Source: Cyanidioschyzon merolae
Lineage: Eukaryota
Strand: one strand, 5' to 3'
Length of the DNA stretch: 64,000 nt
Assembly: GCA_000091205.1 (NCBI GenBank)
Contig: AP006486.2
Shown here: positions 1,285 to 64,000 of the stretch, piece after piece
Position numbering within the stretch: position 1 is the stretch's first letter
Layout: every line of letters starts with the position of its first letter
Made by a program: the position numbers and the translations under genes
The notes under the pieces: model-generated
What the model saw: the letters and a program-made list of their open reading frames with translations, nothing else
Databases searched by the model: none
What the model was told of the DNA's origin: nothing

Positions 1285-1465
1285 ACGCGCGCCCGACGCT
1301 TTGACCTCAACGTCACAGAGTGCGGTTCTGCGGCGGCCGCTAACACATATGTTCCGACATGGTGCCTAGCGACATACTCAACGGAAAATACCCGGAGCAT
1401 GCAGGACAGCTTGCGACCATCTTGCACAGCGTGGACGCCTTGGAAACTTCAATCCCAGCATACGA

Positions 1466-7019: not shown

Positions 7020-8368
7020 GAGCGTAAACTGCGGGCCTGTAAACATTCAGAGCGACGAGCGGTGAAAGTCCCAGTCGTGGACGCTGCATACCGGAGTGCT
7101 TGGCGCCAGGTGCTTTCCTGTCTGAACGAAGTCGCTGTGAGAAGAAAACATGGTCAGAACCGCGTCCTTGGTATAACATGGAGAGACCCAACAATAATCG
7201 CTGCCGAGAACTTGTCGATGGACAAGTGTCGGAAGCGAGCACACCCTTTCCGGAAGGAAACACGAGTAGCATGCTTTCAAGCTGGTGCCTTTTCCTTCAT
7301 TACGTCGCTTCCGTTCTGTTCGCGCCCCCAGGACGACCGATAGAAACGTAAGAGCTCGTATCTCGCCCTGGAACAGGAAAACCCATCTTGAGACGCCCGA
7401 GCAGCGCTCGATAAAAGGCATGCTTTGTCTCCGCCAATTGAAACGCATCCTCCCCACACATGTAAGAGTGCAAAGCGTCAACGGTTAGGAAAGAGCCATC
7501 TTTGAGTACACAGACGCTTCCGCATTCCATATACAACACAGTTCGGTTTTGTGTGCAGCTGGAAGCAGTACAGCGGGTTCTTCGAATAGCGCCCACGTCA
7601 GCAAGCGTCCCAGGGGCTTACTGCAGGGCAAAGGTTACCATTATGATCAATAAAATGAAGTACAACATTTCACAATCAGGGCGTATGCATATACCTACTC
7701 ATAGACGCCTCCGAGCGTTCTTTGAACAGCCATCTGCTATCTACTTCAGTTTACCCATGCACACGTCGACCATGAAACGTTGCCGCACGAAGTTAAACGG
7801 CGTCAGCGGCGTTTTTCCAGCATTGGGAGTCGGATGCCTGCCTGTAAGCGTCGCACAGGTCGCGGAGGTCTCCCAGCATGTCCTTGTGCACCCCTTTGGG
7901 ATCAGCTCTCTGGAAGGGGCCTGCTGGGTCCGAAATAGACACAGAGTCTTGCCCCTATTCTGGATGGACGATACCTCAAGCTGACGCCCTCAATGGCATC
8001 GCTACGTACTACGCTCTCCGTGTCGCTTCCATGCATGCGCTAGGGACGAACTTTCGAACGCTTACAGCAGGCTCGGCGCCCCGTGGACCGTAGGAAATAG
8101 CCGCTATCTCCGAGAACAAGTACAGGCAATGTCATTTGAAGGTTGGAAGAGCGATGGGCGCTTTTGCGGATCGCTTATATCAGGCTCCGTCGCACATCAC
8201 AGTGCAGTGCACATATGCCGTCAACGGAATCGTGAGAGGATCCGCGTCATTGATGATCATTGATATCTCGTACATTTTGAGAAGATCTGGTACATACGGT
8301 ACGCTAGGTTCTTCGACCCGGTGTATTTGTTTCGATGTCTGCTAAGCTTAACAGTCAACACTGATGTG

Positions 8369-14018: not shown

Positions 14019-16152
14019 TTGTTCTCACGGAAGCAGCGAAACGAGCTGCCATAAGCTCCAAAAAGACGCTTTTCTTCCCAGAAAACGAGACTGTGGATTT
14101 CGCGGAGAGCGATACCTGCCTCGTCCGTTCTGAAGCAAACAGAACCAACTGTCAGTATCCAAGTTAGATTAATTTGCAACAGTTGTAGTATTTCAACTTA
14201 ATTGGGTTCCGCTACCAGGTGCACGCCATCAAATGTTTCTTCGCGATTTTTAGCAGATGTGTCCAAACAGCGTCCACGTTCAGAAGTAAAAATCCAGGGA
14301 AACGTTATGGTGGTGAAAGTTGGGGCATCCCGTAAGCGCAGCGTCGCCGGCAGTCGGAAGAAAGGAAAAAACCTATTGGCCGACCATCGAACGATGAAGA
14401 GCAAATGACGAAGAAGAAAGAGAAGCTGGGAGATAGGCGAGAATATTTGTTTGCCCGACGAGACGATGTCCAGAATATTTTGGTACAGACGGCGCGAGTT
14501 CTAGCAATCCACGCAAAGCTGGGTTCAACCAGCGTCAATTCACGCAAAGGGTTCGTAAATAGAGACCTCAAAACCGCCATCCATGTTAGACGATGTTTGG
14601 TGCTGACGGCGAAACCCGAGGAGCTGAAGCGATCCTGCTTCGTAGGGCAGCCTTTCAGGCTCAACGCGTTCAGTGAGGAGCTGAAGCCGGTAGCTGTCAG
14701 CGGACCGAAAAAGGCTGGAAGGCGTCTGTGCGTGCGTAGATGTATGTACGCTTGTTGGTCGAAGAATGTGCTTCGTTTCGCTCACGATATATGTGCGCGC
14801 CTTGATTCTGCCTTGCGATTTTCCCAAGCTTCTTAGGCGTACAGCCTGCATATTCAAAGTGCAGTAATAAGGACCTACGGATTCAAACGCAAATTAAGTA
14901 TTCTAGGTCGTCTTTTCGGAGTGGATCCGTCGGAGCTTCGCAGCTCGAGTTTGCTTCGTCACCAAGATAAAAATGATTCGCGACGCTCCCGAAAGCGGTT
15001 CCTAAAATGACCGATTCATCATTTAGTTTATTCGTACATTCCTCCACTTGTATCGTTTCCTTACGTGAAGCAAACTCATATTACATATTCGACAAGCTTT
15101 CGAGCTTGTTGTTTAAAGACAGCTCGTAGGCAGAGCACTTCGCGCTGCTGCATTGACGAGGTAAAAGTCAAGCAGTCGTCAATTAACAACATCTTCACGA
15201 GCTCATGCCGCGGGCTCAGCGAACATGTCACTTCAAATCATCGATTCCGTTCGAAAGACAAGTACGTTTCTCTGATTGATCATCGTTGATATAGGTTTAC
15301 GCAGCTACAAGACACCTTTACCGAGCTACGCTCCCAGAGGCTCCTGTGCCCTCGGTTTGCACCCAAAAGGGTATCGGACTCGGAAATTAGTCATTGCTGT
15401 GATCGCTTCATGTCGAAGGTGCGTCTCTGCTTTGTACGACGAGAGCGTATACGGGTCGACATTTCTTGACTGGTTCTCCAGCTTGGTTTTCCTTCTGATC
15501 GTTTTCCGTCATGCACGATATCATGCTCCCCAAATCGTCTATAGAATGGTACTACGTACGCCCGCGTGTGCAGCGGACGGATGACTCACTGAGGCCATCG
15601 CCCACAACAAGCCCCCGATCGTAGGGCATGGCACAGCGCGGGGACGGAAGAGAGCGTTCAGGCGAGCCCTCGGTACCCGTCAAGGAAATATATCGAGCGA
15701 TCCAGCGAACGTTCACGCGCTACAGCCCCGCCTTGGAGTGAGATGTGTTGTGGATACAGCGCAACCCCGGACCATTAAAATGCCTCACCACTGCCAGGGT
15801 CGTACCCAGGCTATATACAAAGAAGACGAAAATGGCATGCGACGCGTCTCTCATAACGTGCACCTGTGCGTCAAACGCAAATGAAAACAAGCAGAATCAG
15901 CGAAATCGCGACTTGAACCTCGGCACCAACATTCATCGACTGCTGACAACGGAACTGGAGGGACACGAGAGGCCGCCGTGCCCCCCGATGAAGGTATGGG
16001 AAAGAATATGGAAATGGTTGGAGGAAAAATCTCCTCAACGCTGGTGTAGATAGCGTCGGGAAGCATCCCAAACTTGATGATGCAAACGCGAGTTCGACAA
16101 GTAGACCTATCCACTTTTATTCAGGCAAGAATGCAAAAGCGCCCCCCGAAAA

Positions 16153-28824: not shown

Positions 28825-29438
28825 GGACAAAATGAGACTCCGGCGTTCTCATGGGTAACGTTGGGAGCTGGAAAGCAAGCAGCACTACAAAAGCCCGGAA
28901 AGGCTTGTGTTAATAATAGTTAGGAGAGAGCCAGATTGTAGGTGATATATTCGGTTAGTTAAATAACTCCATTCCATTTTATTCTGACATTGTGCTACTG
29001 AAAAACCGACGTCTTCCATAAGATTAAGAAATGTGTCAACTGGGAACCAGAATCCAGAATTTCGGCGAACAATGTACCAAAATAGATTATATTGTTCTCT
29101 ACGGACATTTCCGTCCGTGCGCATGAAAGCCGCCATCGCGGGCTCCCGATGAGGCCAGCGAGATCTCTGCAGCAGCGTACCAGCGCCAGGAGACAAATCG
29201 CGCTCCAATCGATCATTGTGGTAAGTTGCTCACGACTCTCGGCGGCGTTAGTCATAGACTGTTCTCCGAGAAGGTTGCCGTCGAAACAACTTTTTGGTTT
29301 TAGACCTGTTACAAGCCGCTGTTGGAGACAGCAGCGGACTGTAAAAACGGGGCCAGACAAGTGGCCGACTTGGCAAAAGGACACGCAAGTTTCACTTCAA
29401 GCACTGCTACCTAGTACTCATCCGCTGTGTTGGCCAAA

Positions 29439-35323: not shown

Positions 35324-36660
35324 CAACAAAAAGGGCCACAGCGTTCGGCACCCTGGCGCAAGCTTGCCTTAAGCAGTTACGTCACACGCATTCACTGAAG
35401 CACCTTCCAGTGGAGTCCAGCGGTAAACGACGCAAGTGTGCCGAACTCAACCCGGTGGACAAACAAAGTCAATCTACCATCATCAGTCGACGTCCTGGTT
35501 AGCGTTTTCAATTGGTAGGTTCGCTAAACCCCTTCAAGATTATCCCCGATCTGCAGATGCTCGAATCGCTCTGCATGCCGGTGCACGCTGCCAGCTGCAT
35601 CATGTGTTCTTGTCCTATGTTACCTGCATTCGCTGCCGACGGTCTTGCCGTCCACGCATCTATCGTACATCATCCAAACAGGTCACGCAGGCGCCCCTAC
35701 CCACTTGCGCGGAGAACCGCGGATCCGAAACTTACCACGATTTCAGGCCTCTTTTGCTTGATCCACTTGGCTCCGTTGTGCACCATCCGTCCTATGGAGA
35801 AGCTCATCACTGAGGGCTTCAAAGGTGTGCGACGAGCACCTGTGATACTCATAGCCGTTCAGCTGGGCTATTCCTATGTGGCAAGCTAGTAGATTAGCCT
35901 AGACCAGGCATTTAGTGTGTGTTAAAGAATAATATCTGTAGCGCGAACTTATTTGCGAGACGTGATATGCGCCATTGCCCATCCCTTGACTCTGCGCTGC
36001 CCTTGCGTTGGGGAGAATTGCTGTCTCTTCCAGAATGCCGCGGTTTCGAATCGCAACGAGTATATTTGTTGAGATGTGTCAATCGCGTCTGGGAGCGACG
36101 CACACAGCGCCCTGGCGCGAACGCAGCACACGCAGCGTGGCAGCTTCTGAGTCGAGCGATCGACTTCTATTCGATTGTTTAGTATGCAGTGTGGGTATTG
36201 TGCTGGAATGCTGCGGACTCTCGATGAAAAACATCATGTATCATCAGAGCGGCGATTAAGTCCCCGCTTGGGGCAAGCCACTTGTATGGTACGGTCTGCA
36301 CTGTATCAAGGCTGGACTGCCATATACTTTCGCCACGAACAATGTTCGTGGGTAACTGTTAAACTATAATTGTGTTTCATTCATCAACATGACGGAGAAT
36401 AAATCCACCAATCACATAACATGTACAAAACGTACAGACCGATTGGGCTGCAATCACCTCGGCAGGTGCGGAACGGGCACCGCATCCCCGAGGTGAGCCT
36501 GGCTCTCTGGAGCGGGCGCGCTGAGAACACCGGCCAGTAACGGGATCACTCCCACGCGAAGCGCTTCGAAATATCAAAGAACATTCTTCGTTTCGTTGAG
36601 CGTTTAACGGCATTGCCACGTGAAATTCCTCTCGTTTGGAAGTAGACGTTTTTGACTGTT

Positions 36661-48067: not shown

Positions 48068-49207
48068 ATCACTCAGTCGCTCGGAGAGTGGTCACGCGTC
48101 TAGAGTCGTGCCTCCGTACGAGAACCGACGATGCGTTTCAGCCACGCTTAGCGTGGGGTTATATGAGGATGCGTCAGGATTAGTCCAGTGAGTCTGGCGA
48201 GGCCCCAATTTCATGGGACATTCCGTTTCTCTCCAACGCGTTCCAGCGCCTTAGACCGCGCGATAGATATTCCTGTGGTTCTCTGGTTGGATCATTGATG
48301 CGTCGTTGAGCCGAGCACGATGAAACGCTTCTAGGTGACGCTTATAAACATGGCGTATCTCGAACATATATACCATTTAGCGAATCGTGCTGCGAAGAAT
48401 CGAGGCAATATGAGATGGATCTTGTGCAGGCTCACCATTCAAAGAAGAATTCAATGCAATACACATAGGGCGCCAGCGTTTTCTTTACAAATATGACAAA
48501 GGAGCTTCCAGTTCATCTCGGCATCTTATGCCTAGCCAGAGACTCGGGAAACTATTCTCCGGAAGACACATTTGCACAAGGTTTGCAGAATTGCACTGGA
48601 GACAGAGGCTCTTTCTCTCGTTTTCCTGAATACCATAATGCGGACTTGCAGGTCTGGTTCATCCGGAATAAACTCGGAAACAGGACGGATCCCAAAGTCT
48701 GTTTCTTCCGTACGAACTTGAGCATGCATTGGCAGTAAATGGGCGGAAGAACTCAACGTCAAGTGTAGCTGAGGAACGCAAGTGCGTTCAGTTCTGATAT
48801 TCTAAGCCCGCTGCATGAGACCAGATGCAGTCGGCGAAGCTCTTATTGACGGTTTCCACAAAGGCGAGAGCCGCCCCCTTTGTGATAGTGCTTCGTATAA
48901 TAGCATTTCTGACCACGGATGCACCTTACACACAGGTGCCACAAATCTGCAGTCTGGCAGCGACTACGCCGTTCTCTGAAGGCCGCTTCCACGCCCTACA
49001 ATGCTCAAGGCATTTTTCACGATAGGAATAGAAGTTAGATTGATTCAGCGTTAGAGATTGCACTGCTGCCGAGCGCACCGCACATCCCCTTGGTGCAGCA
49101 CTGGAGGCTGTGGCAGCAGCAGCTACGACACTGGCACCATACGAAGGCAGCCTTGCTTGGCGTTGCATTTGCAAGCGTCCCTTCGAGACCTGCGTCCGTT
49201 ATACTCT

Positions 49208-51610
49208 GAGCAGTGAATCCCGGAACAAGTGCATCAGCTCGCACTTTCCTTCTTGTTCCATTTGTCACAAGTACTCATCAAAAGAAATGTATATTTTAGA
49301 TCGGAGAAAGGTCCCGAAAACATTAGATTTCGTCACTGCTAGCTTCCCCGGAAAACGAGCTTGCTTCTTCCAGCCTGTTATTCGTCGGTCAGCAGGCGGA
49401 TACATCCCCGCCCTTCACGTATTGCTTATCCTGAACGTTGTGCTTCCACAACAGAACTTATCAAACCCGCTGGACGCGACGGTCGCCTCGTCAATCCGTT
49501 CCTCCCCATACGTTCTCGGTGAGATACCACCAAAGAAGTCACAGCATGCGCAGTTTCCCCATCGGTGATACAGGCGGAGAAAAATACGCCCGGATGCAAG
49601 AGCAAAACGAACATGCTTCTTCGGGAGACCGTCGCGCATTGAATGAAGCACCCCTCGTTTCGCACTGGAGCGCGAAGGCCTCGCACTCGACGGATGTTCG
49701 TCTCGATATCCTGAACCTTATGCCCGACAAATGGTAGACATGTGCACGGCGACTCGAGCAGGGTCAAACCGCTGTTCGTGCAGCAGAGACAAGAGAGCAT
49801 GATGACAATATCGGCCCTAGCGACGGTGCTATCCTGTGGTCGCCTACGTATCGCGATTCGGACAGGATTGGTCAACGCCTTAGCCTTCGTCGAGGAACGC
49901 TTCGCGGCTTCTCCTCCACCATGTCATTCTATGCTGTTCTTCGTAGACTTCGCTTTCCGTGTCTTAGACGCTGTCAAAGAGTACGCAGGTGGAACTAGCG
50001 CTGAGCCGCCCTTCACGTCAGACTATTCTTCCTGGTTCAATGCGTCGAATGCATCTTGTCTGTTATCAGACACCATCTCTGTGCTCACTCACCTATAGAC
50101 GAGTCATTCGCATCCGTAAAATTATTCTTCAACGAGTACGTCTTCGAGAACAGGTCCTGTACTTTCACTGGGCCTGAATTGCTGCGTTCCTCCTGCGCTC
50201 TTTCTGCTGAGGGAGCGCAGAGGCGCGCTCCGTGCCGCGAGCGTACTCGCCACGGAGAAGTCTGTAATGAGGCACTTGAGCAATCGTGGTTGCTTGCGTA
50301 CACAGAAAAGCACGAATGTCAGCGCCGTCGTCCGCACCGTGTGCCTGAGTCCCAGGAAAAAAGGATTTGGATTATAGCGACAACATCCACACTACTCCGC
50401 CAGCGAGACGACGGGGCGACGGAGAAAGACAGGAAAATGCCGGACAAACAGGAAGTGAATGATCCTCCCAGAAAGAGGACGAAGAAGAACCAGAAGGGAA
50501 AGCGGCCGGGGCAGACATATCAGCGAGAAACAGTTGCCGAAGCCTCTCTACGGAAACACATCAATGGGGGCAAGCCTCCAAGATGTGGGGTTCAGGACAC
50601 CATTCGGGATTTCGAGGCTTCTCACTCGAGGAAGTCTCCACGGGCTTCTCTCGCCGAGGCGCCCGTCGTCAAACACATGTTCGCGTGAGTGCTGGACGCA
50701 GAGCTCCCCGCGCTCCAGGCTCCTCTGGATTTTGCCAAGTAAATCTTCGACCGGCAACGCAGCTGATGCTCGCGACGGTGGATGCAGCACGGCCTGATCG
50801 AAGAATCAGGGACTTGTATGAATGCCTCTGAGCGTACGATGACTCGTCGGCGCGCCGCGTCGGCAACAGGAACGTCTACAACGCAGGTGCCACAGATGAA
50901 ATGAACCACCAAAAATTCAAGTTCCTTGGCGGGTCATTGTTGAGCACCTCACCGGGCATACCCAGTCAGCGTTGTACGCTTGTGCACTCACACCAGTGGT
51001 CCGGAGCGTGAGCACTGATGGAAGGGGTTCATAGGGGTGCCCATGGAGGCAAGTGACGAGCTGGAGGCTACGGAGGAGCGCGAGATGGCAGCGAGTTTCG
51101 AGAAGATGCCGCAGCAAGAGCGGTGGGCGCTTCAGATCGTTCAAGTTTATGGTGCTGCTGAGGGCTATTGGACCGCCGAACGTCGTTCCTGAGTATGTTT
51201 GAAGCGCGACGCCTGCCATGCTTGCATGTTGCGCTACTTCGGTTTCCTGAACAAAACCTCCACTGTAGAGCACCCTCCCTGGCCGAGTCCGAACTCCCTG
51301 GCCTACTCAAGCGCTTCTTGGACGCGGTCCATGCACGCGACTTCTAGGGCCACGATATTACTGTACTGTACTGCACTGCAGTGTACTGGACTGCACTGGA
51401 CTGCACTGCACTGTACTGCACTGTACTGTACTGCTCTGTACTGCACTGCTCTGTACTGCACTGCACTGTACTGCTCTGTACTCCTCTGTACTGCACTGCA
51501 GTGTACTGGACTGGACTGGACTGCACTGCACTGGACTGCACTGTGCTGTGCTGTGCTGTGCTGTGCTGTGCTGTGCTGTGCTGTGCTGTGCTGTGCTGTG
51601 CTGCACTTGA
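49208..51610. repeat. Dispersed repeat family B, copy 1 (at least 2.4 kb), apparently non-coding. Its 3' part is a pentamer minisatellite.
   Basis: It is about 97-98% identical to 61773..64000 in the same orientation (constant offset 12565 until the minisatellite). The ORF-track translations are duplicated at 49742/62307, 50056/62621, 49426/61991 and so on. Copy 2 is cut by the window end, so the true 3' boundary of the family is unknown. Confidence 0.9.
51354..51608. repeat. Minisatellite of degenerate (T/C/G)ACTG pentamers, about 38 units, followed by about 12 perfect CTGTG units.
   Basis: Direct reading gives tactg tactg tactg cactg cagtg tactg gactg ... then ctgtg repeated 12 times across 51541..51602. 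It generates long spurious ORFs on both strands (51199..51870 +, 51344..51616 -). Confidence 0.95.
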
Positions 51611-53341
51611 CCGCACTGCCCCGTCCTATCCTATACTGTACTACCTGCTCAATGAGCTACAACTGGTCTTTGCGAGCACATATGAAGCACTCGAGCATCT
51701 TTACGAAGAGCATTGGCGGGGGCCGTTCAAGGTTGTTTCTTGACGCAGAGTCCAAGGAAGGAACTGGACAGGTGCAGTGCAGACCGACGGAATATCCCTC
51801 TGGTTGCACTCTGTTCAGTCGATACCCGAGTCCCGCAAAGAGGCTCGTTTCAATCGCTCATCGTCGATGAAATCTAAAATTTCGCGGCGGGTGTAGGTCC
51901 CGGGTTGCAGGACGTCATAGCTGTCGCCGTGCTCCCAGGTCAGGACGACGAAGCCAAGGGCCTGAACTGAAAGCAGCTGGAGAAGCTAAATGTTTCCAGA
52001 GCTCCGTCTTATTGAGGGTCGCGCATGACAGGTGTCAGAAGGCATACCGACAGATGGAATGGACGCGGCAGGACCCAGATAGACGCCCTGAATACCGTGC
52101 GGAGCAGAGGTGGTCCTTCGAACGCTTCAGCCGAAGATTGCGTGAGCGTCTGAATGGCTCGTGCGGAAGGCGTCTCTGGCAGGCGTACCCGAGGCCGCGC
52201 TGAGGTCGCCAACTTTTTCGGTTGCACGGAGACAAGAAACGTCCATTGACCGTCCACTTCCATATATTGGAGAAGGAAATGACCGACAAGTCGCTTCGTT
52301 CGAAGGCAGCGTAGGGTTCTTGATGTGTTGCGGCGTGCAGTGGCTCCACTCTTGCTCGTCGAATGCGAGCGCACGACAAGTGCAGGAATCGACTCTTCAG
52401 GAATCCCATCGGTGAGTTCGGGACGACAAACACTCCTTGCGGACACGGGTGTGCGCTGAAACCGATTGAGAAGAAGCGAGTGAAGCGCAGACAGCTGTAT
52501 GAGATGGTGTACGGCAGGGTGACCAAACCTCAGATACCGGTGCATTCGAAGGCGAGCGGCTTTGTATAGTGCGATTCTACCAGCAAGCTTGTGCGCAGGC
52601 GCTTTCTGCAGCGAGACTTGAACGTCCCGCTCAACGTTCGGAAATGTCACGTGCCTCCGGAGCGCTCAGCGGCTTTGCATCGAGCGGGTTGTCGGGGAAG
52701 AATCGTTCGCTTCTCAGCGTAGGCATTGTGCTGGAGCGCTGAGGACTCCCGATGCAGAACAAATCAGTAGCCGGGATCGAGGATCGTGGATTTCCGCCTG
52801 GAGCAAGACACTGGTATGGAACGGTGTATCAGTTCGGAATAGGCTGGAGTGCCGCTTATCTAGATCGGGAAAGACTTTCGTAGGCAACTGATGAGTGATT
52901 ATGGTGTAGGATTACTCAATAAGATGGGCAAAGTTGAGCGAGCCCTGTCGTCAACGCCGTGCCTGCGTTAGCGACGGCTTTCGCAGCTGTATGCCAGGCT
53001 TCCTGACACCAGCGGATTCGGCGAACGAAAATATTTCGAAGTTCAAAAAATTCCTGACGACCTCGATTATTCTGAGATGTACATAGACGAAATTCGTGGA
53101 TTCCTGACAACGCATCTGGCTCGAGAATTGTACGCACCACAGACTGGATCCTAATCGCAGATCTGTTCATTCCTGTGGAAGAGATAAATGCGGGTCGTTC
53201 GCTCGTCGACCTTGACACCTCTAAATCGCAACATCATCCGTTGTTCATCGATGTGGAGGAGCCTCAAAGCAACAGCTCAGCTAGTGTCTCGCAAAATGCG
53301 ACTCGTGCGAGCCTGCTGAGCGCAAATCCTCAGAGAGGCTT

Positions 53342-54148
53342 TCACGAACTTTTGTTAGATTGTCGCTCCGAGCATCGCATTCGTCGAGCAACTGCTGCAA
53401 CAAATGGAAGCAGAATCTTCCCAGTAAGGTCATCGATCAAAAGGATATTGTACAGGGCCGAGGCCGCCCAGACGACTTTTCGAAGGCCTGCTCCAGGTGG
53501 CGAGGCCGGTTGCCCTCGTTTGCATGATAGTTCGTGCCAGAGGATGATTCTTCGCACGACCTCCACTCTTGCAGGTGGTACACATATCAGGGTAAATACA
53601 GACGGCGGAGAATCATTGGCTCCCTCCACAACAAGCTGATAAACGAAGCAGTCCGCTTCGAGGTGCTCTTTGGACTGAGACACCAGAGATAGACCGTCGA
53701 GAATCGAGTTGAGCTCTACTGCACCAGTTTCCCGCTGCAATAGATTCATTGAACGTTTCATGGTTTCTGCAATGAGATCCTTTTGAATAGGCGTGTCGCT
53801 ATCGGTGTTGTAGAGTGCGACAGCAACAAAGTCGACAACCAAAGGACCAAAGTTCGGAAACTGCGAGAGCATATAGTCCAGGATAACGCGCTCTGCCCAT
53901 GACGAGCGACCTTTCGCTCCAAACACTAGAGCGCATACCGTCGCCTGCGGGGAAGTGGACTGTCCGAAGTGGGGAAAGACCTTCTCCGACAAAAAACCAT
54001 AGATTCCTTCTGTTGCTGGTGCAGCCGCTACAGATACCCCTTGCGACAAGGGCAGACCCAAAAGACTGGAACCTGATAGGTCTCCACGGCTTGAACTGGT
54101 ACCCGGCTCCCAAAACGAACTTGGTTCTGTAACTATGAGAGTTTCCAT
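53342..54148 (-). CDS. Hypothetical protein (268 aa), no recognisable family.
   Basis: The ATG-initiated ORF has a non-repetitive sequence with mixed hydrophobic and charged composition. An alternative overlapping ORF (53799..54242) looks less protein-like. Confidence 0.35.
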   Translation of the reverse strand: METLIVTEPSSFWEPGTSSSRGDLSGSSLLGLPLSQGVSVAAAPATEGIYGFLSEKVFPHFGQSTSPQATVCALVFGAKGRSSWAERVILDYMLSQFPNFGPLVVDFVAVALYNTDSDTPIQKDLIAETMKRSMNLLQRETGAVELNSILDGLSLVSQSKEHLEADCFVYQLVVEGANDSPPSVFTLICVPPARVEVVRRIILWHELSCKRGQPASPPGAGLRKVVWAASALYNILLIDDLTGKILLPFVAAVARRMRCSERQSNKSS

Positions 54149-55010
54149 ACCTTGTCTGCGGAAACCTGTTCGAAGCAGAAACCGGCTCGACGAATTGCTC
54201 TGTTTGCACTTTTGCGAAATCCGCGAACAATCTCGTTGGCAACCGTCGCTCAGTGCCGATGCATTTCGAGAGCGCTCTGTTGATGTACTTCCCCTAAACC
54301 TATTTCAGATTCCATTGAAACACTCAGCAGCCTATTCAGTTCATGCTTTTCGAAGTTTTTCGAAATTTGTTGCCCGATATCCAGCCTCGACAATGGTGGG
54401 ACAGCAATAAAGCTACACAGTTTCAAACGTGATTTTAGGGTTCTCAGTCGTCTTTCTGGAAAAGCTACATCTAACCAATGCCGCTGGAATTCGTTACGTC
54501 TCGGGTATCAAAATGATTCGCGATGCAATGGAGCAAGACTTCAACTTAGCCGATATCATCATCAAAATCGTACAAAGAAGGTTCCAATATTCTCCATTAC
54601 CTTTCGCGTTGTGTGGTTAAATAATGTTTCCTTCAAGTTTGTAATGTTTCTATTTCAAGGCAACTCATGAATGCAGGAATTCGCGGAGCAGAATTGAAGA
54701 TAAAAAATCTCGACGTCGCCCATTGACGGTTAATTTACAAGCTCACTCAGTATAGTCACTAAATTTGTCACGTCAGGTAATCGGTATCGTTCGAATGACA
54801 AATGCTACTCTCTATCCAGTGAAGAAATAAGATTCGACACAAGACTGGTGACTTTCACAGGGGATGATGCCAGAGACTCTCGTCTGTTATGTGTCCATAG
54901 AAATGGATCTTCGACTCGGACTTCAGTTCTCGCACAATCTACGTCCAGTGGAAAGGTACATAATCGCTTTTCAGGAGCGAAGCTTCGATGGACCGAAATT
55001 CCGCATCTTA

Positions 55011-57558
55011 TTATCAAGCCTGGGTGTTCCCTCTGTCTCTGGTACATTCACGGATAACACCGTGTTTCTCAAATGCTCTTCGGTTCGGAAAATAGCATAG
55101 AACAGAGAATGGGACATCTCACACAAAACTACTTATTCTGCTTCGATTACACCGATCGATAACGTCTTTTGAGCTTCGAAGAACAGGTTCAGTGAAGCAA
55201 ATACAGGTATCGATGACTCAGATCGTCCTCGGCACGAGCCAGTGATCGATGCCCTCGGCGACGCGCCTGAGGCCGACAGGCTCGTCGGAGCTCTTCCCGG
55301 AAAAGCCCTTGACACTGGAAAATGGCGGCTTTGCGAAGAGGCATATAGAAAAGAGACGAACAAGGTCCAAACAATAAATACATATTGCTTGTTTATCGAT
55401 GGATACACACACTCAAGCACAGCAGGTTTGCCGGGGGAACAACAGTATTACTGCAACAAAAGAATCCGGGAACGTTCCGAAAAAATGTGCGTACCGCTCA
55501 AAGAGAGCTCGCTCATTCTCCGGCGGGACGCCTTCCTGCACGGAGCTCGCCGCCTGGGCTTTCGCTCGAACGGAAAGCACTGCACATCGCTAGTCTACGA
55601 TACAGCGGTCGTTGCGGGATCCCTTGGAATGCACTTTTTCCCCGCCGGAACACAGAGGCCGCGTACGAGAATACGCGATCCTTCACAATGTGCCCGGCAC
55701 GGCGCTTAGCTCGTACTTAAGACGGTGTACCTCGAGTGCATCGGGGACCTCGAAAAAAGCATTTCGTAGTGGCACAGTCGGCACTGATGGCCATTTCTCT
55801 CCCCAGCTCCTCGCGTACACACACACACGACGCGCCACAGCCGATGCCCAGATATGCAGTTTGGCCGATGCCAAGGGCGTCGCTCGCTTCGTGTCTCATA
55901 TCCGCCAGGCCTCCAAGAAGGAGCACGTGGGCGAAGAATATGCATGGTCACGCTGGACCTAGCCGGCATTCACCTACAGGGTCGCGTGATGGAATCGATA
56001 ATGCAGAGACGAACGGGAGAGGACACAGTCACTAGGCTGTACCGCACGACAGAGCTCTTCATGACCGGCGCTTCGTCGAAGCCCATCTGCTCAGAGGATA
56101 GACAGAAAGAGATCGACCTCTGAAGAATACTCCTGGAAGGCGGAGAAGCCAGGGAGCAGATCGACCTGCCGCCAATGAGCAGCTTGCCCTCAGAAGCGAT
56201 GCTGCTTCTGCATTCGGCGTGGGGCTCAGAGCCCCTAGAGGGACCAGACCCTCGGCTTTTCCACGGGCACCGTGCTGACGCTCACATCAGCCCCGCGATG
56301 CGCGCCTGTCTCGCTTCGTTGTGGAGTGGGTGTCTCTGCGACAGATGCGAAAATGCGACTGATGGAGGACTGAAGCACCAACGAAGAGGAGGGGTTGATC
56401 AACGACATGGAGTTCATAAAGCGAAGTAGGCGCCATTTCTCCAAAGATTGAAACAATGCACGAACCGCTGGAGGAAGAAAAGCGAAAGGATTGTAAGAAT
56501 GCTTCGAAAGAAATGCAAAACATGAGGAGCAGAAGTTTCTCACAACGACGAGTGGACCTATTGGCTTCTATCAGGGCCGATGGTATAGGTATTTCGATCG
56601 CCATCAACAGCAAGCTTCCGGGACGCTTCACGAGCCCCTCTGAGCTCGACCACACCCCATGCACAGAAATGGACTACGCGTAGGAACAAAACGCAACACA
56701 GATGCGCGGCCACGCGAAGTTGCTCCGCAATACGACACCCGTCAGCCCGGACCCAGGAAGAGCAAACCCATACACCTGCGCTCCTATGAGACGTAACGAG
56801 AGGTCAGACACGCAGGTGGCAACCGACGCCAATTGGAAGGCTTAAGATCCGAAGTATCCGACTCTAACCTGAAGGCGTAGGCTCTAGGCGCACGTACATC
56901 ATGTTCTTCTCAGCGGAACCGAGCAAATGAAGGAATGGTCCGATAAGCGAGCGAGCGAGCGAGCCAGCGAAACTGATTCTAGTTACGGAAGCGTTCGCAG
57001 CATTGCGTCAAGCTCGTGGGATCTATAGGAACGATGGTCACCAGAAGGTAAGGTTCGTCGATGTCCATCACGGTCATTGGCTCGTGTTGTGGAGTATGTT
57101 GGCAGCAGACGAGGAGCGTGCCTCGAAGCGGACGGTGAGTTATCGAATCGAACGCTTTGCTCTTGCTCCTGCAGCAGTCATGGTGGTTTTCTAGGGAATC
57201 GCTTAGCAGAGGTCCGTGATCGTCGGGAGCGTCACAGCGTGCGGCAACAGGGCAGAGAGTCGGGGCAGGCCATGTATACCCTCCAAGGCCGTTTGCCGAG
57301 CGATGCAACATGAGTTCACGAGCCGCAGCGTGACGCTCGAGAAGGACGTGTGGCGGACATAAGGGAACACCTGACCGCAACCTAACATCACTGCCGCGCC
57401 GGGAGCACCGACGCTGTACACAAAGAATACGAATGCGGCGAGCGAAGCGTGGATTACAAACTTCAACTATGCTTCGGATGCCAAGAAAGCATCGGGAGGC
57501 GGCGAGATCAGGGTGTGAACGCTACCGTCAGCATCGTTTGACTGCTGACAAAGGGGCC
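55011..57558. repeat. Dispersed repeat family A, copy 2 (about 2.55 kb).
   Basis: It is about 98-99% identical to 26289..28824, with a constant offset of 28722 at the 5' end. It carries a copy-specific (GCGA/GCGAGC) microsatellite expansion at about 56941..56966, which accounts for most of its extra 12-14 nt. Confidence 0.9.
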
Positions 57559-59211
57559 AGAGGGAAAAGAGATACCGGCGCCTTTGAAACCAAAGAGAAA
57601 AGAGAGGGAACGGTCGCAGTCACCGAGTAAGCCGGCGAACCTGGTATTGATGAGAATAGAAAAAGAACCAAAACTGTGGTGTATATGCCCGTGTCAGTGG
57701 AACCGTTTCGTTGTATTTTGACGTAGGTGTAGCTCCTGTACTGGTGGTCAGCAGGCTTCGGCCAAAGCTTGACGAGTCTTTCCGATAGCATAGGAGCATT
57801 AGCGTTTCTGAGACATGCGCCGGACCTAGCGTTCAAGCTTCCGCTCTGTCTCGGTCGGCATCTGAGGCCTCGGCATGAATACATCACGTGGAAAGTTCTT
57901 CTCGGGTACCGTTGCATTTCATACATATCATGCAGTGTCAGTTCGTTATAAGCAAGCAGAGATTCCAGCCCGTGTAGTTATCACGTGCCAAGTTGAGAGA
58001 GCACTTCGGCGAGGGAGACCGAGGTAATAGGCAACGGGTAGAGCCCTCAGAAGAAAAAGTAGAGCAACGAGCATCTGCGACGATCGCGTTCACCAGCTGC
58101 ACTTTGGCGCCTACTATGCGAAGGCAATGGCGCTTGGGGTGTTCGATGAGAGAAAATCTATCTACGTTGGCATAGGGACACACGTTAGTGCAGCGTGCAC
58201 TGCATTCCTCAACGGATAGACATCCAAGGATGGAACAGGCCGAAACGTGTGGAATACTAGCTTCCGAGAGCAGATATTGCGAGGGATGCTGCAAGTGTCC
58301 GCCTCGTTCCGTCGAAGTGGACAGCAGTCTCGAACGAGACCGTAAAGCAGGTAGTCGATGAGCCCGAGCAACACGACGCTTGCACTGCCGTGGGTATCTG
58401 ACATTTGCCTATCGCTGACATGCTACAGAGTCTTCTTCGAAAGGGGCCCATCCCAGACCGCGAAGACTCGGCGCTCTAGTGGGCATTGCGCGCAACCTCG
58501 AACAGGCTCACTCGCCGCAGGACATAGGCAGACACAGAATATGGTGGTCCAGAGTTCGCGGCGCTTCGAAAACCAAAGTGGCGTCTTTACACATGCTCAG
58601 GAACGTGAGGCGCCACAAAGAACCAAATCTTCGACTTTTCATGAAAACCTGCTTTCTCGCGGACATGTTATGGCCTCAAGATAATCATGCATCAATTGTG
58701 AATCTGGATGGATGGCTTGTACGTCAACATCCTCACTTTACGCAGACGTCCTGATGTCAGACGACTTCCATCTGCAAGAATCAAATATCACAGTTTCCAA
58801 TGATTTGCTGCTAGCGCACACCATCTTTGGCCTCTGAAGGTCACGACGGTGCATATGTGCTCGAAACCTGGCGTGAAACACATTCCTGACTCTCGTTATC
58901 CGAACTCATATAAACCTCCACGCAGCGATTATCTTTTGACACCTGTAAAGTCTTGTATGTGCGACTCCCACGGGCTGCACTGGTCTCTCGCAAGGCCCCG
59001 CCCATGCGATTGCAGCAACCAGCTCAACCCGAATGGAGCCGAATGTAGAAGATGACCGCTGGATAGAGCAGGGCCCAACATGAAGAAACTCAGGCTTGTC
59101 AATGAGCTGGCGGTTCAGAGCGCGACCATACAGCATAACGGATTTCGGAAATAAAACTGGACTCAGGGTCAGCGAAACTTCCGCAGTTAACACAGCAATG
59201 GGAACGGCGCT

Positions 59212-59754
59212 TCAATGTCGTTGCCGCTGCTGCAACAAGAAGCTGCAGATCTCCCGAAGCTTCTCATGCTGAATTCCATTGCAAGCCTCAAAAAATTCGG
59301 TCAATTCCATGTTTTCTTGCGTGTTTTCGTAAGTAAGAGCCTGCAAGACCATATCAAGTTTGTCTAACTGGTGAACAAAAACGGCCGCTGGGGTATTTGC
59401 TTCCTCGTACTCGCGAAAGAGTGCGTACAGTTCGCAACCCGCTTCAGAGCCAGAGAGGACGTCGTCCCGGATTTTCCGAAAAGCCTCATCCTCGAGGACT
59501 GCCTTTTCCCGTGGCGAAATCCCACACTTTGGCGTTATGTCTCCAACGAGGGATTCCGCCAGATCATGCACCAAGGCAAGTTTCAGTACCTGAGCATCCC
59601 CGTCACCAAGCAAAAGCGCGAGCATCGCCACACCGTACGAGTGACTAGCGACTGTCTCGGGCACACACACACCCGAGCGCACCCATCCTGTTCGTTGCAG
59701 CGCCTTGAGTCGCGCGACAAGTTCGAAGAACTGAACGACCTGCGAAGGCCTCAT
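59212..59754 (-). CDS. HDDC2: HD domain-containing protein 2 (HDDC2/YfbR-like 5'-deoxynucleotidase).
   Basis: LKALQRTGWVRSGVCVPETVASHSYGVAMLALLL, LALVHDLAESLVGDITP and VHQLDKLDMVLQALTYE align with human HDDC2 (LKRVPRTGWVYRNVQRPESVSDHMYRMAVMAM, LALVHDMAECIVGDIAP, VKQLDQCEMILQASEYE). The start is the first in-frame ATG; the ORF-track start at 59760 is a TTG. Confidence 0.8.
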   Translation of the reverse strand: MRPSQVVQFFELVARLKALQRTGWVRSGVCVPETVASHSYGVAMLALLLGDGDAQVLKLALVHDLAESLVGDITPKCGISPREKAVLEDEAFRKIRDDVLSGSEAGCELYALFREYEEANTPAAVFVHQLDKLDMVLQALTYENTQENMELTEFFEACNGIQHEKLREICSFLLQQRQRH

Positions 59755-60339
59755 ATCCAACGCTATTAAGCGTTCGTGCGCTCATGCGCGCACGACCCAC
59801 GAAGCGCCGCGCTGCGAGCACAACAAGCTAGCATCGCTGCAACAATACAGCGGAAGTGCCAAGCTGTGCAAAACACCGCATGGTACCCTGTCCAAACATC
59901 CTTTCAGAAGCTGCTCGTTTTGGTTGGTCACATCATCGCCACACAGGTACCAGGGATCCTCGATTGCGCATTTGATACTAGTGCGTAGTGCAGCCTACAT
60001 CGTTGCACGCCGCACTTCCTACTTCCACGACCCATTCGTACCCTCATACGTCCTGGGTGCCGCTAGAGATCGCAGGCAGGCGCAGGTCATCGCCAACCGC
60101 TCATCATCAACGCAGCGCCTATGTGCCCGGCTACCTGACTATCTGGATACCTGGCTATCTGGATGTGTGCTTTGCAATGCGTCGCAATAGCTGCATCACG
60201 CGATTCCACAAATGGCGTGGCAGCATTGCCGCTGGCGCAGCGCGCGGCAGCTGTCTCGCGATAATGTACGGTGGGGGTTTGCAGTTGGCGCGCGCAGTTC
60301 AGCGAGCGTTTAGTGATATCTTTTGAGCAAGAGTGGCTG

Positions 60340-61413
60340 ATGACGGAGAAACATAAGGTTGCTATACTTGGATCAGGTAACTGGGGCAGCACGGTGGCGA
60401 AGATCGTGGGATCGAACGTCAAAACGAAGACAGAATCGTTTGATCCGGAGGTTCGCGTGTGGGTATACGAGGAGCTTGTCGACGGACGGAAACTTACCGA
60501 GATTATCAATAGCGATCACGAGAATGTCAAGTACCTTCCAGGTAAGAAGCTTCCAGAGAACGTGGTTGCCGTTCCGGACCCGATCGAGGCTGTCGCTGGG
60601 GCCGATATTCTCGTCTTTGTGCTGCCTCACCAGTTTGTGCGAGGCCTCTGTGCCAAGCTCCGAGGGAACGTTCGCGAGGGCGCTTTCGCAGTTTCGTTGA
60701 TTAAAGGCGTGGAGTTTGATGAAAACGGTATTGTGCTGATTAGCGACGTGATTTCGAAGGAACTTGGTGTGGAGTGTTCCGTTCTGATGGGCGCAAATAT
60801 TGCCAATGAGATAGCAGATGAGCAGTTCAGTGAGGCCACCATCGGGTACAAGAATGCCGCGCACGCGAAACTATTGCAAATCATTTTCCAGAAGCCCTAC
60901 TTTCGGATCGCAGGTGCACCAGATATCCCAGGCGTAGAGATCTGTGGGGCCCTAAAAAACGTGGTTGCTCTTGGAGCCGGTTTCTGTGATGGCCTCGGTT
61001 ACGGAAACAACACGAAGGCGGCAGTTATTCGTTTTGGACTCCTGGAAATGGTTCGTTTTGCGAAAAAGTTTTTCAAGAATGTCCAGTATACAACGTTCTT
61101 GCAGTCTAGTGGTGTGGCGGATCTCATAACGACTTGCTACGGTGGCCGAAATCGTAAATGCGCGGAGGCATTTGCGCGGGCTGGTGGCCGGAAGAGTTTC
61201 GAAGAACTGGAGGTGGAACTGCTCAATGGCCAAAAGCTCCAAGGTACGCTCACAGCGAAAGAAGTACATGAGGTACTCCAGCGCCAAAAACTTATGAAAG
61301 AGTTTCCATTTTTTGAAGTGATATATGATATCGTTTACGAAGGTAGACCGGTTGAGCAGTTCCTGCAGGAGCTGAGCGAGAAAGAGCTCTCGCTTGAAGG
61401 AAACATTGAGTGA
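60340..61413 (+). CDS. GPD1: NAD-dependent glycerol-3-phosphate dehydrogenase (cytosolic GPD1 type).
   Basis: KVAILGSGNWGSTVAKIVG, TEIINSDHENVKYLPGKKLPENVVAVPD, ADILVFVLPHQF, VSLIKGV, VLMGANIANEIADEQFSEATIG, EICGALKNVVALGAGFCDGLGYGNNTKAAVIRFGLLEM, GVADLITTCYGGRNRKCAEAFAR and ELLNGQKLQG are near-identical to human GPD1 blocks. The start is the first in-frame ATG; the ORF-track start at 60271 is a GTG. Confidence 0.9.
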   Translation: MTEKHKVAILGSGNWGSTVAKIVGSNVKTKTESFDPEVRVWVYEELVDGRKLTEIINSDHENVKYLPGKKLPENVVAVPDPIEAVAGADILVFVLPHQFVRGLCAKLRGNVREGAFAVSLIKGVEFDENGIVLISDVISKELGVECSVLMGANIANEIADEQFSEATIGYKNAAHAKLLQIIFQKPYFRIAGAPDIPGVEICGALKNVVALGAGFCDGLGYGNNTKAAVIRFGLLEMVRFAKKFFKNVQYTTFLQSSGVADLITTCYGGRNRKCAEAFARAGGRKSFEELEVELLNGQKLQGTLTAKEVHEVLQRQKLMKEFPFFEVIYDIVYEGRPVEQFLQELSEKELSLEGNIE

Positions 61414-61772
61414 AGCTGTTTCATGAATGTTCGTGTCACCGTAGTTCGCGGGCTCGTCAAGCTTAATTTTAGCTGATGCGTAAATGCTTTCGTTTATCTA
61501 TTCGGGTGTACTGAGGATATGTCTGCGGCTCTCGTGTGGCGGGGTATTCAAGCACATGCACATTCCGACACCTTTGCACAAAAGCGAAATCTCTTGAAAG
61601 ATACAGCATCAATCGCTAAGGTGCGGTGCCTAGCCTGGATTGGAAGTGTCCCTTTATACGCGCAAATAGACTCTGCGGACAATGCGCATTTGTCCGCTAT
61701 GTGCTCAAGCAGAAGCCTTTCCACACTTCCAACCTGCAAACGATGAAAGTCGGATTGGTGGGAGCATAATTA

Positions 61773-64000
61773 GAGCAGTGAATCCTGGAACAAGTGCATC
61801 AGCTCGCACTTTCCTTCTTGTTCCTTTTGTCACAAGTACTCATCAAAAGAAATGTATATTTTAGATCGGAGAAAGGTCCCGAAAACATCAGATTTCGTCA
61901 CTGCTAGCTTCCCCGGAAAACGAGCTTGCTTCTTCAAGTCTGTTATTCGTCGGCCAGCAGGCGGATACATCCCCGCCCTTCACGTATTGCTTATCCTGAA
62001 CGTTGTGCTCCCACAACAGAACTTATCAAACCCGCTGGACGCGACGGTCGCCTCGTCAATCCATTCCTCCCCATACGTTCTCGGTGAGATACCACCAAAG
62101 AAGTCACAGCATGCGCAGCTTCCCCATCGGTGATACAGGCGGAGAAAAATACGCCCGGATGCAAGAGCAAAACGAACATGCTTCTTCGGGAGACCGTCGC
62201 GCATTGCATGAAGCACCCCTCGTTTCGCACTGGAGCGCGAAGGCCTCGCACTCGACGGATGTTCGTCTCGATATCCTGAACCTTATGCCCGACAAATGGT
62301 AGACATGTGCACGGCGACTCGAGCAGGGTCAAACCGCTGTTCGTGCAGCAGAGACAAGAGAGCATGATGACAATATCGGCCCTAGCGACGGTGCTATCCT
62401 GTGGTCGCCTACGTATCGCGATTCGGACAGGATTGGTCAACGCCTTAGCCTTCGTCGAGGAACGCTTCGCGGCTTCTCCTCCACCATGTCATTCTATGCT
62501 GTTCTTCGTAGACTTCGCTTTCCGTGTCTTAGACGCTGTCAAAGAGTACGCAGGTGGAACTAGCGCTGAGCCGCCCTTCACGTCAGACTATTCTTCCTGG
62601 TTCAATGCGTCGAATGCATCTTGTCTGTTATCAGACACCATCTCTGTGCTCACTCACCTATAGACGAGTCATTCGCATCCGTAAAATTATTCTTCAACGA
62701 GTACGTCTTCGAGAACAGGTCCTGTACTTTCACTGGGCCTGAATTGCTGCGTTCCTCCTGCGCTCTTTCTGCTGGGGGAGCGCAGAGGCGCGCTCCGTGC
62801 CGCGAGCGTACTCGCCACGGAGAAGTCTGTAATGAGGCACTTGAGCAATCGTGGTTGCTTGCGTACACAGAAAAGCACGAATGTCAGCGCCGTCGTCCGC
62901 ACCGTGTGCCTGAGTCCCAGGAAAAAAGGATTTGGATTATAGCGACAACATCCACACTACTCCGCCAGCGAGACGACGGGGCGACGGAGAAAGACAGGAA
63001 AATGCCGGACAAACGGGAAGTGAATGATCCTCCCAGAAAGAGGACCAAGAAGAACCAGAAGGGAAAGCGGCCGGGGCAGACATATCAGCGAGAAACAGTT
63101 GCCGAAGCCTCTCTACGGAAACACATCAATGGGGGCAAGCCTCCAAGATGTGGGGTTCAGGACACCATTCGGGATTTCGAGGCTTCTCACTCGATGAAGT
63201 CTCGACGGGCTTCTCTCGCCGAGGCGCCCGTCGTCAAACACATGTTCGCGTGAGTGCTGGACACAGAGCTCCCCGCGCTCCAGGCTCCTCTGGATTTTGC
63301 CAAGTAAATCTTCGACCGGCAACGCAGCTGATGCTCGCGACGGTGGATGCAGCACGGCCTGATCGAAGAATCAGGGACTTGTATGAATGCCTCTGAGCGT
63401 ACGATGACTCGTCGGCGCGCCGCGTCGGCAACAGGAACGTCTACAACGCAGGTGCCACAGATGAAATGAACCACCAAAAATTCAAGTTCCTTGGCGGGTC
63501 ATTGTTGAGCACCTCACCGGGCATACCCAGTCAGCGTTGTACGCTTGTGCACTCACACCAGTGGTCCGGAGCGTGAGCACTGATGGAAGGGGTTCATAGG
63601 GGTGCCCATGGAGGCAAGTGACGAGCTGGAGGCTACGGAGGAGCGCGAGATGGCAGCGAGTTTCGAGAAGATGCCGCAGCAAGAGCGGTGGGCGCTTCAG
63701 ATCGTTCAAGCTTATGGTGCTGCTGAGGGCTATTGGACCGCCGAACGTCGTTCCTGAGTATGTTTGAAGCGCGACGCCTGCCATGCTTGCATGTTGCGCT
63801 ACTTCGGTTTCCTGAACAAAACCTCCACTGTAGAGCACCCTCCCTGGCCGAGTCCGAACTACCTGGCCTACTCAAGCGCTTCTTGGACGCGGTCCAAGCA
63901 CGCGACTTCGAGGCCCACGATATTACTGTACTGCACTGCACTGCAGTGTACTGGACTGGACTGGACTGCACTGCACTGGACTGCACTGTGCTGTGCTGTG
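61773..64000. repeat. Dispersed repeat family B, copy 2, cut by the window end inside its terminal minisatellite.
   Basis: See copy 1. The pentamer minisatellite begins at about 63921. It has far fewer NACTG units (about 13) before the CTGTG tract than copy 1 (about 38). Confidence 0.9.

Follow-up and report, generated by a model that had tools for sequence, protein, structure and literature searches.

The stretch analysed here, a 64,000-nucleotide window of Cyanidioschyzon merolae DNA, carries the genes for TERT, G3PDH and AP-3 sigma, which are exact matches to chromosome 4 proteins of strain 10D; TERT is CMD110C. A repeat unit designated B begins 1141 bp past the TERT stop codon at 48067, shortly downstream of that gene as the first-pass annotation had reported, and a second copy is cut by the end of the window (Table 1). 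In a self-BLAST, 49208-51433 and 61773-63998 align without gaps at a fixed offset of 12565; their 2226 bp differ at 26 sites (98.83% identity), a likeness far beyond chance. The two direct repeats flank an HD-domain gene, G3PDH and A2, the second member of another repeat family, and their haplotypes are common to both loci across strains. The claim of a direct repeat therefore stands, and two further parts of the same claim, that each copy ends in a minisatellite and that the family has only two members, do not.

Table 1. Features of the B family and of related relics in the window
Feature	Position	Strand	Remarks
B1, complete B element	49208..52933	+	3726 bp
B2, second copy, cut by window end	61773..64000	+	array from 63925
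5' non-Fanzor region of B	49208..50436	+	conserved left terminus GAGCAGTGAATYCYGGAAC
Open frame of 227 codons	50005..50685	+	last 83 codons, from ATG 50437, probably the former Fanzor N-terminus
Internal (ACTGY)n pentamer minisatellite	51359..51607	.	about 50 units (TRF)
Relic of C-terminal half of a Fanzor1 (TnpB-like) gene	51633..52803	+	frames 51633-51809, 51878-52135, 52174-52803
Antisense open frame of 218 codons, over Fanzor relic	52012..52665	-	probably spurious
3' terminal region (right end) of B	52700..52933	+	blocks conserved among diverged B copies
Old diverged 3'-terminal B fragment	36173..36396	+	B positions 3494-3721; nhmmer E 3.1e-16
Internally deleted CMe-1A relic, not B	14182..14740	+	consensus 784-1064 and 2833-3095
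Second internally deleted CMe-1A relic, not B	7697..8181	-	consensus 48-421 and 2978-3088

The B unit has two sharp ends, GAGCAG...GCAAAG. The left boundary comes from the self-BLAST alignment and the right boundary from metagenome contigs with the B2 context (L018 and L019). On five contigs that carry the G3PDH-side copy (L001, L003, L007, L018 and L019), homology to B1 continues through the pentamer array to 52933, where the unit ends in ...CAATAAGATGGGCAAAG; past this point the next 1253 bp of L018 are unrelated. Beyond the window end, B2 is thus inferred only from L007, L018 and L019, contigs of close relatives that share 98-99% identity with the window, and not from strain 10D itself. The array, which in B2 occupies 63925 to at least 63988, is consequently internal to a 3.7-kb unit. 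Its length varies among contigs and is about 155 bp shorter in L007.

The right third of B contains the relic of a gene for Fanzor1, an RNA-guided nuclease. The relic lies just beyond the right edge of what the first-pass annotation called copy 1 (49208-51610). By tblastn, the CMe-1 Fanzor protein given in the PMC3627910 supplement matches 51633-52701 in three frames (joint E 8.8e-23), with residues 329-388, 425-511 and 523-700 aligning at about 30% identity. At the nucleotide level, nhmmer pairs CMe-1A 2181-2983 with 51881-52679 (E 1e-13). The characteristic motifs occur in order (QTDG, G.GPG, EF.T and RDxN). The RuvC-I motif GADPG has become GVGPG with loss of the first RuvC aspartate, and the RuvC-II glutamate (EF.T) and the RuvC-III aspartate (RDxN) are retained. 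The gene is further broken by two frame changes and nine in-frame stops. No intact open reading frame with the full RuvC D-E-D triad exists in B, so the relic is not a live member of the nuclease family.

The 227-codon frame upstream of the array may preserve the other end of this gene. Its matches to CMe-1 Fanzor residues 15-113 are weak and collinear (hhalign E 0.0037; hmmsearch iE 0.085-0.4; nhmmer E 0.84), and on this sequence similarity its last 83 codons are probably the N-terminus of the former Fanzor protein. The frame is also open in two diverged relatives (P0038 and P0039, 32-42% amino-acid identity), and its upstream part differs among diverged copies at 67, 62 and 86 sites by codon position, a weak third-position excess. 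A profile search with the frame returned the same four proteins only, wsv486 not among them.

None of the B frames behaves like a live gene, in keeping with the earlier judgement that they are probably not coding. The 227-codon frame has a codon-usage score of 0.03, compared with 0.1-0.2 in real genes, and the amino-acid differences between B1 and B2 quoted previously are real: four of the five substitutions in this frame are non-synonymous and one is synonymous. The 218-codon frame on the opposite strand is probably spurious; a search of 5.8 billion proteins found for it a single cluster of near-identical metagenome calls and nothing beyond its own copies. Pfam gave no match in the six frames of B at E<=1. 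However, Pfam is nearly blind to Fanzor1 (E 0.51 for the intact CMe-1 protein, and 3.9e-5, below the cut-off, for wsv486), so its negative results for B and for family A, the other repeat family in the window, carry little weight. A phmmer search of the CMe-1 Fanzor protein against the PDB also found no match.

The B family is larger than the pair first noticed. Five loci were seen in the window and on metagenome contigs, and every copy seen is dead. They include the fragment at 36173-36396 and two further diverged copies at other loci. By nhmmer, contig L025 holds B positions 2-1591 next to a gene identical to CMI154C on chromosome 9, and contig L027 holds positions 1-140, 324-1199 and 2454-3714 next to a glutamine synthetase gene that clusters with a chromosome-9 gene. 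The L027 copy has thus suffered an internal deletion and kept both ends. The left terminus is common to B1, B2, L025 and L027, and over L025, L027 and 36173-36396 the diverged copies begin at B position 1 or 2 and end at 3714-3721. Dispersed copies at unrelated loci therefore share the two termini of B1 and B2, which argues for a discrete mobile element and against random duplication.

This bears directly on whether B1 and B2 arose by simple segmental duplication at this locus, through repair or recombination and not transposition, and hold an old transposon relic by chance. Such an event would fit copies in direct orientation only 12.6 kb apart, the lack of a TSD, a Fanzor gene that had died before B1 and B2 diverged, and a second repeat pair interleaved with the first. 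Both breakpoints, however, fall within a few bases of the ends of the diverged members (the chromosome-9 loci and 36173-36396), and a random event would not stop exactly at both ends of an element; we consider this origin unlikely. B1 and B2 resemble low-copy repeats under gene conversion as 3.7-kb direct repeats that are 98.8% identical and 12.6 kb apart and that share haplotypes across strains, but differ from them by having transposon ends and family members elsewhere.

The interleaved pair is family A (26287-28845 and 55009-57580, 98.4% identical). As noted previously, B has no similarity to it at the DNA or protein level. As far as could be judged, family A is not a Fanzor element: it gave no tblastn, nhmmer, profile or Pfam match. 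The two families do not form one tandem duplication with an A and a B member in each half, because the stretches between A1 and B1 and between A2 and B2 share nothing. The alternating order A1, B1, A2, B2 appears to be without meaning, as does the proximity to TERT. The supplements of Mikulski 2017 give no coordinates for repeats near CMD110.

The closest described relative of B is CMe-1A, a 3169-bp element with about 150 copies, no TIR, an undetermined TSD and no known class, whose copies are about 80% identical to their own consensus (PMC3627910). Bao & Jurka 2013 list it as the single Fanzor1 family of C. merolae (PMC3627910). Nozaki 2007 described a 3.2-kb element with 253 copies and a truncated open reading frame resembling WSV486 of WSSV (BLASTX E 1e-5 to 4e-2; PMC1955436). 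These are the same repeat, because the WSSV Fanzor1 protein SWv-1 is exactly wsv486; it matches CMe-1 with E 2e-22. B gives no such match to WSV486. With wsv486 as the query, tblastn against the window finds nothing in B at E<=10, and pairwise BLASTP of the stitched B relic reaches E 0.12 and 0.42 at QTDG and GxDPG, which is not significant. On these comparisons B is tied to wsv486 only through CMe-1.

B and CMe-1A occur in the same genome and in the same size class (about 3-3.7 kb), without TIRs or a recognisable TSD; in both, the 3' two-thirds are taken up by a single long Fanzor1 gene that stops near the right terminus; and both have left dispersed, diverged copies and internal-deletion derivatives. 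The two are collinear from the Fanzor start codon through to their 3' ends. This part spans 2497 bp in B (50437-52933) and 2264 bp in CMe-1A (906-3169), and the 249-bp array roughly accounts for the excess of 233 bp. They also differ: the nuclease relic shares only about 30% of its amino acids with CMe-1, a similarity that is significant only in the C-terminal half, the 5' 1.2 kb and both termini of B are unrelated to the consensus, and B is longer (3726 versus 3169 bp) with an internal pentamer minisatellite.

The shared size, organism and architecture, with a Fanzor gene on the 3' side and no TIR, might place B among the roughly 150 published CMe-1A copies. True copies, however, show 69-86% identity in blastn or nhmmer searches, as on contig L027 and at 14182-14740, and the latter also matches the Fanzor protein by tblastn (residues 633-728, 39% identity, E 5e-13). 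The nhmmer scores of the two CMe-1A relics in the window are E 1e-18 and 9e-18 for the two parts of 14182-14740 and E 1.2e-26 and 0.023 for those of 7697-8181. B has neither about 80% nucleotide identity to CMe-1A nor its termini; it gives no blastn match to the consensus, and nhmmer matches consensus positions 2181-2983 only. Membership of B in the CMe-1A family is thus highly improbable. The first-pass annotation had allowed that B might prove to be a fragment of a known transposon with coding capacity outside the window; essentially this is found, B belonging to a transposon lineage related to CMe-1A, with its decayed coding relic at 51633-52803.

The ends of B fit neither a TIR transposon nor a Helitron. 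A search of 49100-53050 found no TIRs at the termini, and the sole inverted repeats there lie between the minisatellite and 51772-51785. The flanking bases (...ct and ...ta on the left; tt... and ag... on the right) do not repeat, no TSD is present in the flanks, no poly-A or simple-repeat tail follows the 3' end, and the left flanks of the copies have no common motif. In Chlamydomonas, Fanzor1 genes occur in Helitron-associated elements without TIRs and with a 0-bp TSD (CRe-1 to CRe-3; PMC3627910 supplement). B differs from these: in neither orientation do its ends match the Helitron 5'-TC...CTRR-3' termini, it has no Rep/helicase relic, and its flanks do not fit the insertion between A and T that, along with a 3' hairpin, marks Helitrons.

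Non-LTR retrotransposons and the elements that depend on them might leave 3'-terminal, 5'-truncated fragments such as 36173-36396, and C. merolae holds 26 non-LTR elements (Nozaki 2007, PMC1955436). This origin is nevertheless very improbable for B. In none of the frames does Pfam detect remains of a reverse transcriptase or endonuclease, the tail and TSD of such an element are missing, the coding relic is a TnpB-like nuclease, and the derivative on L027 has lost internal sequence but neither end, as is typical of DNA transposons. For B, neither a transposase nor an empty-site allele was found.

The position of B1 1.1 kb downstream of TERT raises a different possibility, namely that B has a role linked to TERT, as a regulatory unit or as the source of a functional RNA such as the telomerase RNA, especially as the repeat class is transcribed according to Nozaki 2007 (PMC1955436). 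The absence of a telomerase-RNA template in B, reported in the first-pass annotation, is borne out. The template CCCCCCATT is absent from both strands of the window, no template complementary to the telomere repeat AATGGGGGG occurs there, and telomerase-RNA models give no match. The comparison with Rfam recommended at that stage yields nothing at the gathering threshold in the window and one chance-level match within B (E 0.85); no tRNAs were found. B is thus neither a telomerase RNA nor another known RNA. The published telomerase-RNA candidates lie on chromosomes 13 and 16, and B elements also adjoin G3PDH, CMI154C and glutamine synthetase. A link to TERT is accordingly the least probable of the alternatives, to the point of being negligible, and B appears to have nothing to do with the adjoining telomerase gene.

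We conclude that B is very probably a degenerate, non-autonomous Fanzor1-carrying element of C. merolae, from a lineage that is related to, yet distinct from, CMe-1A. The ancestral element would have consisted of a 1.2-kb 5' region, a Fanzor gene for a TnpB-like RuvC nuclease and a 3' tail of roughly 130 bp. The gene would have started at ATG 50437 and been destroyed by frameshifts, stops and the expansion of the (ACTGY)n minisatellite inside it. Presumably the element had died before its full length was copied again within 12.6 kb, from B1 to B2 (1.2% divergence). If so, it would therefore have been moved in trans by the machinery of a still-unclassified class. Today B1 and B2 most likely do no more than offer sites for gene conversion and unequal recombination.

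In bacterial TnpB (OMEGA) systems of IS200/IS605 and in eukaryotic Fanzor systems, the RuvC-type nuclease gene adjoins the right end of a mobile element, a region that also gives rise to the guide RNA (Saito et al. 2023, PMC10432273). An alignment of 52700-52933 from B1, B2 (via L018), L027 and 36173-36396 shows conserved sequence blocks in exactly this region; RNAalifold finds compensatory changes in 7 of 38 pairs, from only three effective sequences. By analogy, an omega-RNA scaffold would be expected at 52700-52933, and the nuclease would only help to retain the element, via RNA from the right end. B differs from these systems: its nuclease is a pseudogene, and the analysis identified neither an omega RNA nor a target-adjacent motif or partner transposase. 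A bolder proposal, which we regard as rather unlikely, is that B represents an undescribed second Fanzor1 lineage in C. merolae that was still duplicated in full (about 1% divergence) after the loss of its nuclease gene. This would mean that these unclassified elements, without TIRs and TSDs, move wholly in trans; possibly the nuclease or transposase of another element recognises the conserved 230-nucleotide right end as a still-functional omega-RNA scaffold.

The identification of B removes a false lead, since the repeat beside TERT is transposon debris and not a telomerase-related RNA or a structural feature of the chromosome. Debris of this class is already known to make up about 5% of the C. 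merolae genome, and direct comparison now joins two literatures by showing that the "WSV486-like" repeat of 2007 is a Fanzor1 element. B would add a second, diverged lineage of this element class that is dead yet was recently copied, which bears on how Fanzor1 elements without TIRs or TSDs move. Its direct repeats are also potential substrates for unequal recombination in a very compact genome.

Repeat family B is a defunct Fanzor1 element whose two ends are defined. CMe-1, the protein encoded by the published C. merolae Fanzor1 element CMe-1A, matches three plus-strand segments, each in a frame of its own, with about 30% identity (tblastn, joint E = 8.8e-23; see table), and CMe-1A consensus positions 2181-2983 align at the DNA level to 51881-52679 (nhmmer, E = 1e-13). 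The conserved motifs QTDG, the RuvC-I loop, EF.T and RDxN occur in this order. The relic contains nine in-frame stops, and its RuvC-I loop has changed from GADPG to GVGPG, replacing the first catalytic aspartate. Upstream, the tail of a 227-codon frame (50005-50685), starting with the ATG at 50437 (MPDKQEVNDPPRKRTKKNQKGKR...), is similar to the CMe-1 N-terminus (MEKEVEDP...GKKRK...), with weak, collinear matches to CMe-1 residues 15-113. Between this ATG and the right end, B has 2497 bp and CMe-1A 2264 bp. The excess of 233 bp is close to the 249 bp of the minisatellite; the array therefore expanded inside the dead gene.

The first-pass annotation correctly recognized B as a genuine repeat. 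Self-BLAST aligns the first copy (B1, 49208-51433) with the second (B2, 61773-63998) at 98.83% over 2226 bp, with an offset of 12565, no gaps and 26 mismatches (14 transitions and 12 transversions). These differences are clustered (49221-49642 and 50210-50698), and there are difference-free stretches of 567 and 447 bp. The copies had been thought to end in the pentamer array. Metagenome contigs of close relatives, chosen for carrying the window's exact G3PDH or B ORFs and 98-99.5% identical to the window, refute this: their G3PDH-side copy runs through the array and retains homology to B1 up to 52933. In one contig (L018), 1253 bp of unrelated DNA follow, so the B unit is 3726 bp long and the original estimate was too short. 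The unit ends are sharp (GAGCAGTGAATCC...CAATAAGATGGGCAAAG), and no target-site duplication, terminal inverted repeats or poly-A tail were found there. About 1.05-1.25 kb right of the B2 end, outside the window, L018 (positions 1-201) has a CMe-1A 3' end (consensus 2908-3109) that includes Fanzor residues 668-734 at 49% identity; the region right of the window is thus also repeat-rich.

Coordinates of repeat-related features and reference genes
Feature	Coordinates	Strand	Remarks
AP-3 sigma	23748-24401		exact match to C. merolae 10D protein BAM79176; chromosome 4
TERT	45221-48067		exact match to 10D protein BAM79184; CMD110C, chromosome 4
G3PDH	60340-61413		exact match to 10D protein BAM79186; chromosome 4
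CMe-1 residues 329-388	51633-51809	+	tblastn
CMe-1 residues 425-511	51878-52135	+	tblastn
CMe-1 residues 523-700	52174-52701	+	tblastn
Pentamer array, B1	51359-51607
Pentamer array, B2	from 63925 onward
Diverged 3'-terminal B fragment	36173-36396		B positions 3494-3721; nhmmer E = 3e-16
CMe-1A relic	7697-8181	-	internally deleted, parts of both ends kept
CMe-1A relic	14182-14740	+	internally deleted, parts of both ends kept; Fanzor residues 633-728, 39% identity
Old diverged family A 3' fragment	15539-15959	+
Old diverged family A 3' fragment	25935-26198	-	inverted, directly upstream of A1
B-family / CMe-1A copies, contig L027	9417-11642; 12375-13035 (-); 18094-20411

Rfam gave no match at the gathering threshold across the whole window and one chance-level match only within B (E = 0.85). 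The telomerase template CCCCCCATT was not found in the window, and the telomerase-RNA candidates in the literature map to chromosomes 13 and 16. The suggestion that B is noncoding today is borne out by weak codon usage (its long open frames score 0.03, against 0.1-0.2 in neighbouring genes), by B1/B2 differences inside these frames that are mostly amino-acid-changing, and by the lack of Pfam domains in six frames of B. This Pfam silence is uninformative, because the intact CMe-1 protein itself reaches only E = 0.51. For a 218-codon minus-strand frame of B, the only relatives are its own near-identical copies.

Two published descriptions of C. merolae repeats concern one element class. The genome paper reports repeats of 3.2 kb on average that occupy ~5% of the genome, each with a truncated ORF that has weak similarity to WSV486 of WSSV (Nozaki et al. 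2007, PMC1955436). CMe-1A is described as 3169 bp long, present in ~150 copies that are roughly 80% identical to its consensus, without terminal inverted repeats, of undetermined target-site duplication and unknown class, and encoding a 734-aa Fanzor1, a eukaryotic TnpB homologue; WSSV holds one Fanzor1, SWv-1 (Bao & Jurka 2013, PMC3627910). The supplement of PMC3627910 provided the CMe-1A consensus and the SWv-1 protein, and an exact look-up showed that SWv-1 is wsv486. Since it also matches CMe-1 (E = 2e-22), both papers describe the same class. B cannot be counted as a CMe-1A copy: true relics, in the window and on the metagenome contig L027, have 66-89% DNA identity to the consensus, whereas the B termini and 5' 1.2 kb are unrelated to it. 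B forms a distinct lineage of this kind that diverged earlier, and it is a degenerate representative of an element type already known.

The family extends beyond the two copies first reported. The 227-codon frame, used as query in an exhaustive HMMER search, recovered two distant relatives (42% and 32% identity). One, on contig L025, sits 410 bp downstream of the gene for a protein identical to C. merolae CMI154C (chromosome 9); the other, on L027, has a YbeY-like gene on one side and on the other a glutamine synthetase gene, which clusters with the chromosome-9 gene of 10D. With B1 as the nhmmer query, L025 corresponds to B positions 2-1591, up to the contig end, and L027 to positions 1-140, 324-1199 and 2454-3714, with an internal deletion and both ends kept. 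A further fragment lies within the window (see table). Homology at independent loci starts and stops where the B1/B2 duplication does. These common boundaries are the hallmark of a discrete mobile element and argue against a random segmental duplication as the source of B1 and B2. L027 (34.7 kb, from a C. merolae-like genome) holds, besides its B-family copy, a 5' piece of CMe-1A and a nearly complete CMe-1A copy with 86% identity to the consensus, a load that illustrates the high density of these elements.

B1 and B2 are both found in every related strain sampled and have identical lesions at 1.2% divergence. The unit was probably copied once more after its own nuclease gene decayed, which would imply mobilisation in trans by the machinery of the element class. 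In TnpB/Fanzor systems, transcription of the transposon end region supplies the RNA that guides the nuclease (PMC10432273). The last 230 nt of B contain sequence blocks conserved among diverged copies; in a covariation analysis of this right end, with only three effective sequences, 7 of 38 pairs showed compensatory changes. B1 and B2 haplotypes are common to both loci and swap loci between strains, a pattern that fits gene conversion between the copies and that could also be produced by chimeric short-read contigs.

As first proposed, B is unrelated to family A at the DNA and protein levels. The family A copies (A1, 26287-28845; A2, 55009-57580) are 98.4% identical. None of their frames contains a Pfam domain, nor do they resemble Fanzor or CMe-1A; they probably represent another mobile-element family of unknown class. 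For the alternating order A1-B1-A2-B2 noted earlier, the best reading is a series of independent insertions into a repeat-rich stretch and not a structural pattern: the sequences between the repeats have nothing in common, and the window also contains A fragments, two CMe-1A relics and the further B fragment. B1 apparently lies near TERT by coincidence, since other copies of the family adjoin G3PDH, CMI154C and glutamine synthetase.

Three contigs (L001, L002 and L022), compared with 21614-28845 and 55009-63998, join the A1 left flank directly to the A2 right flank and omit 28.7 kb including TERT. Either the assembly collapsed across the A repeat, or these contigs represent a recombinant haplotype; a contig from another sample (L017) covers 42027-55147 continuously. 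In some samples (L005 and L009), G3PDH is directly preceded by another gene, cupin-like or rhodanese-like, and identity with the window sets in at ~60290-60320, only about 20-50 bp before the G3PDH start codon. This suggests a structural difference between strains in the G3PDH promoter. As the C. merolae genome is compact and nearly intron-free, long gene-less stretches are conspicuous. An ATG-initiated ORF of 268 aa between B1 and A2 (53342-54148, minus strand) has a gene-like codon score of 0.087. The single NCBI protein accession in the TERT-G3PDH interval more likely corresponds to the HD-domain gene at 59212-59760; this ORF may thus be a gene missing from the annotation or have arisen by chance.

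What is modestly new here is a second Fanzor1 lineage in the C. merolae genome, apparently copied after the death of its nuclease gene, and the explicit identification of wsv486 as a Fanzor1.
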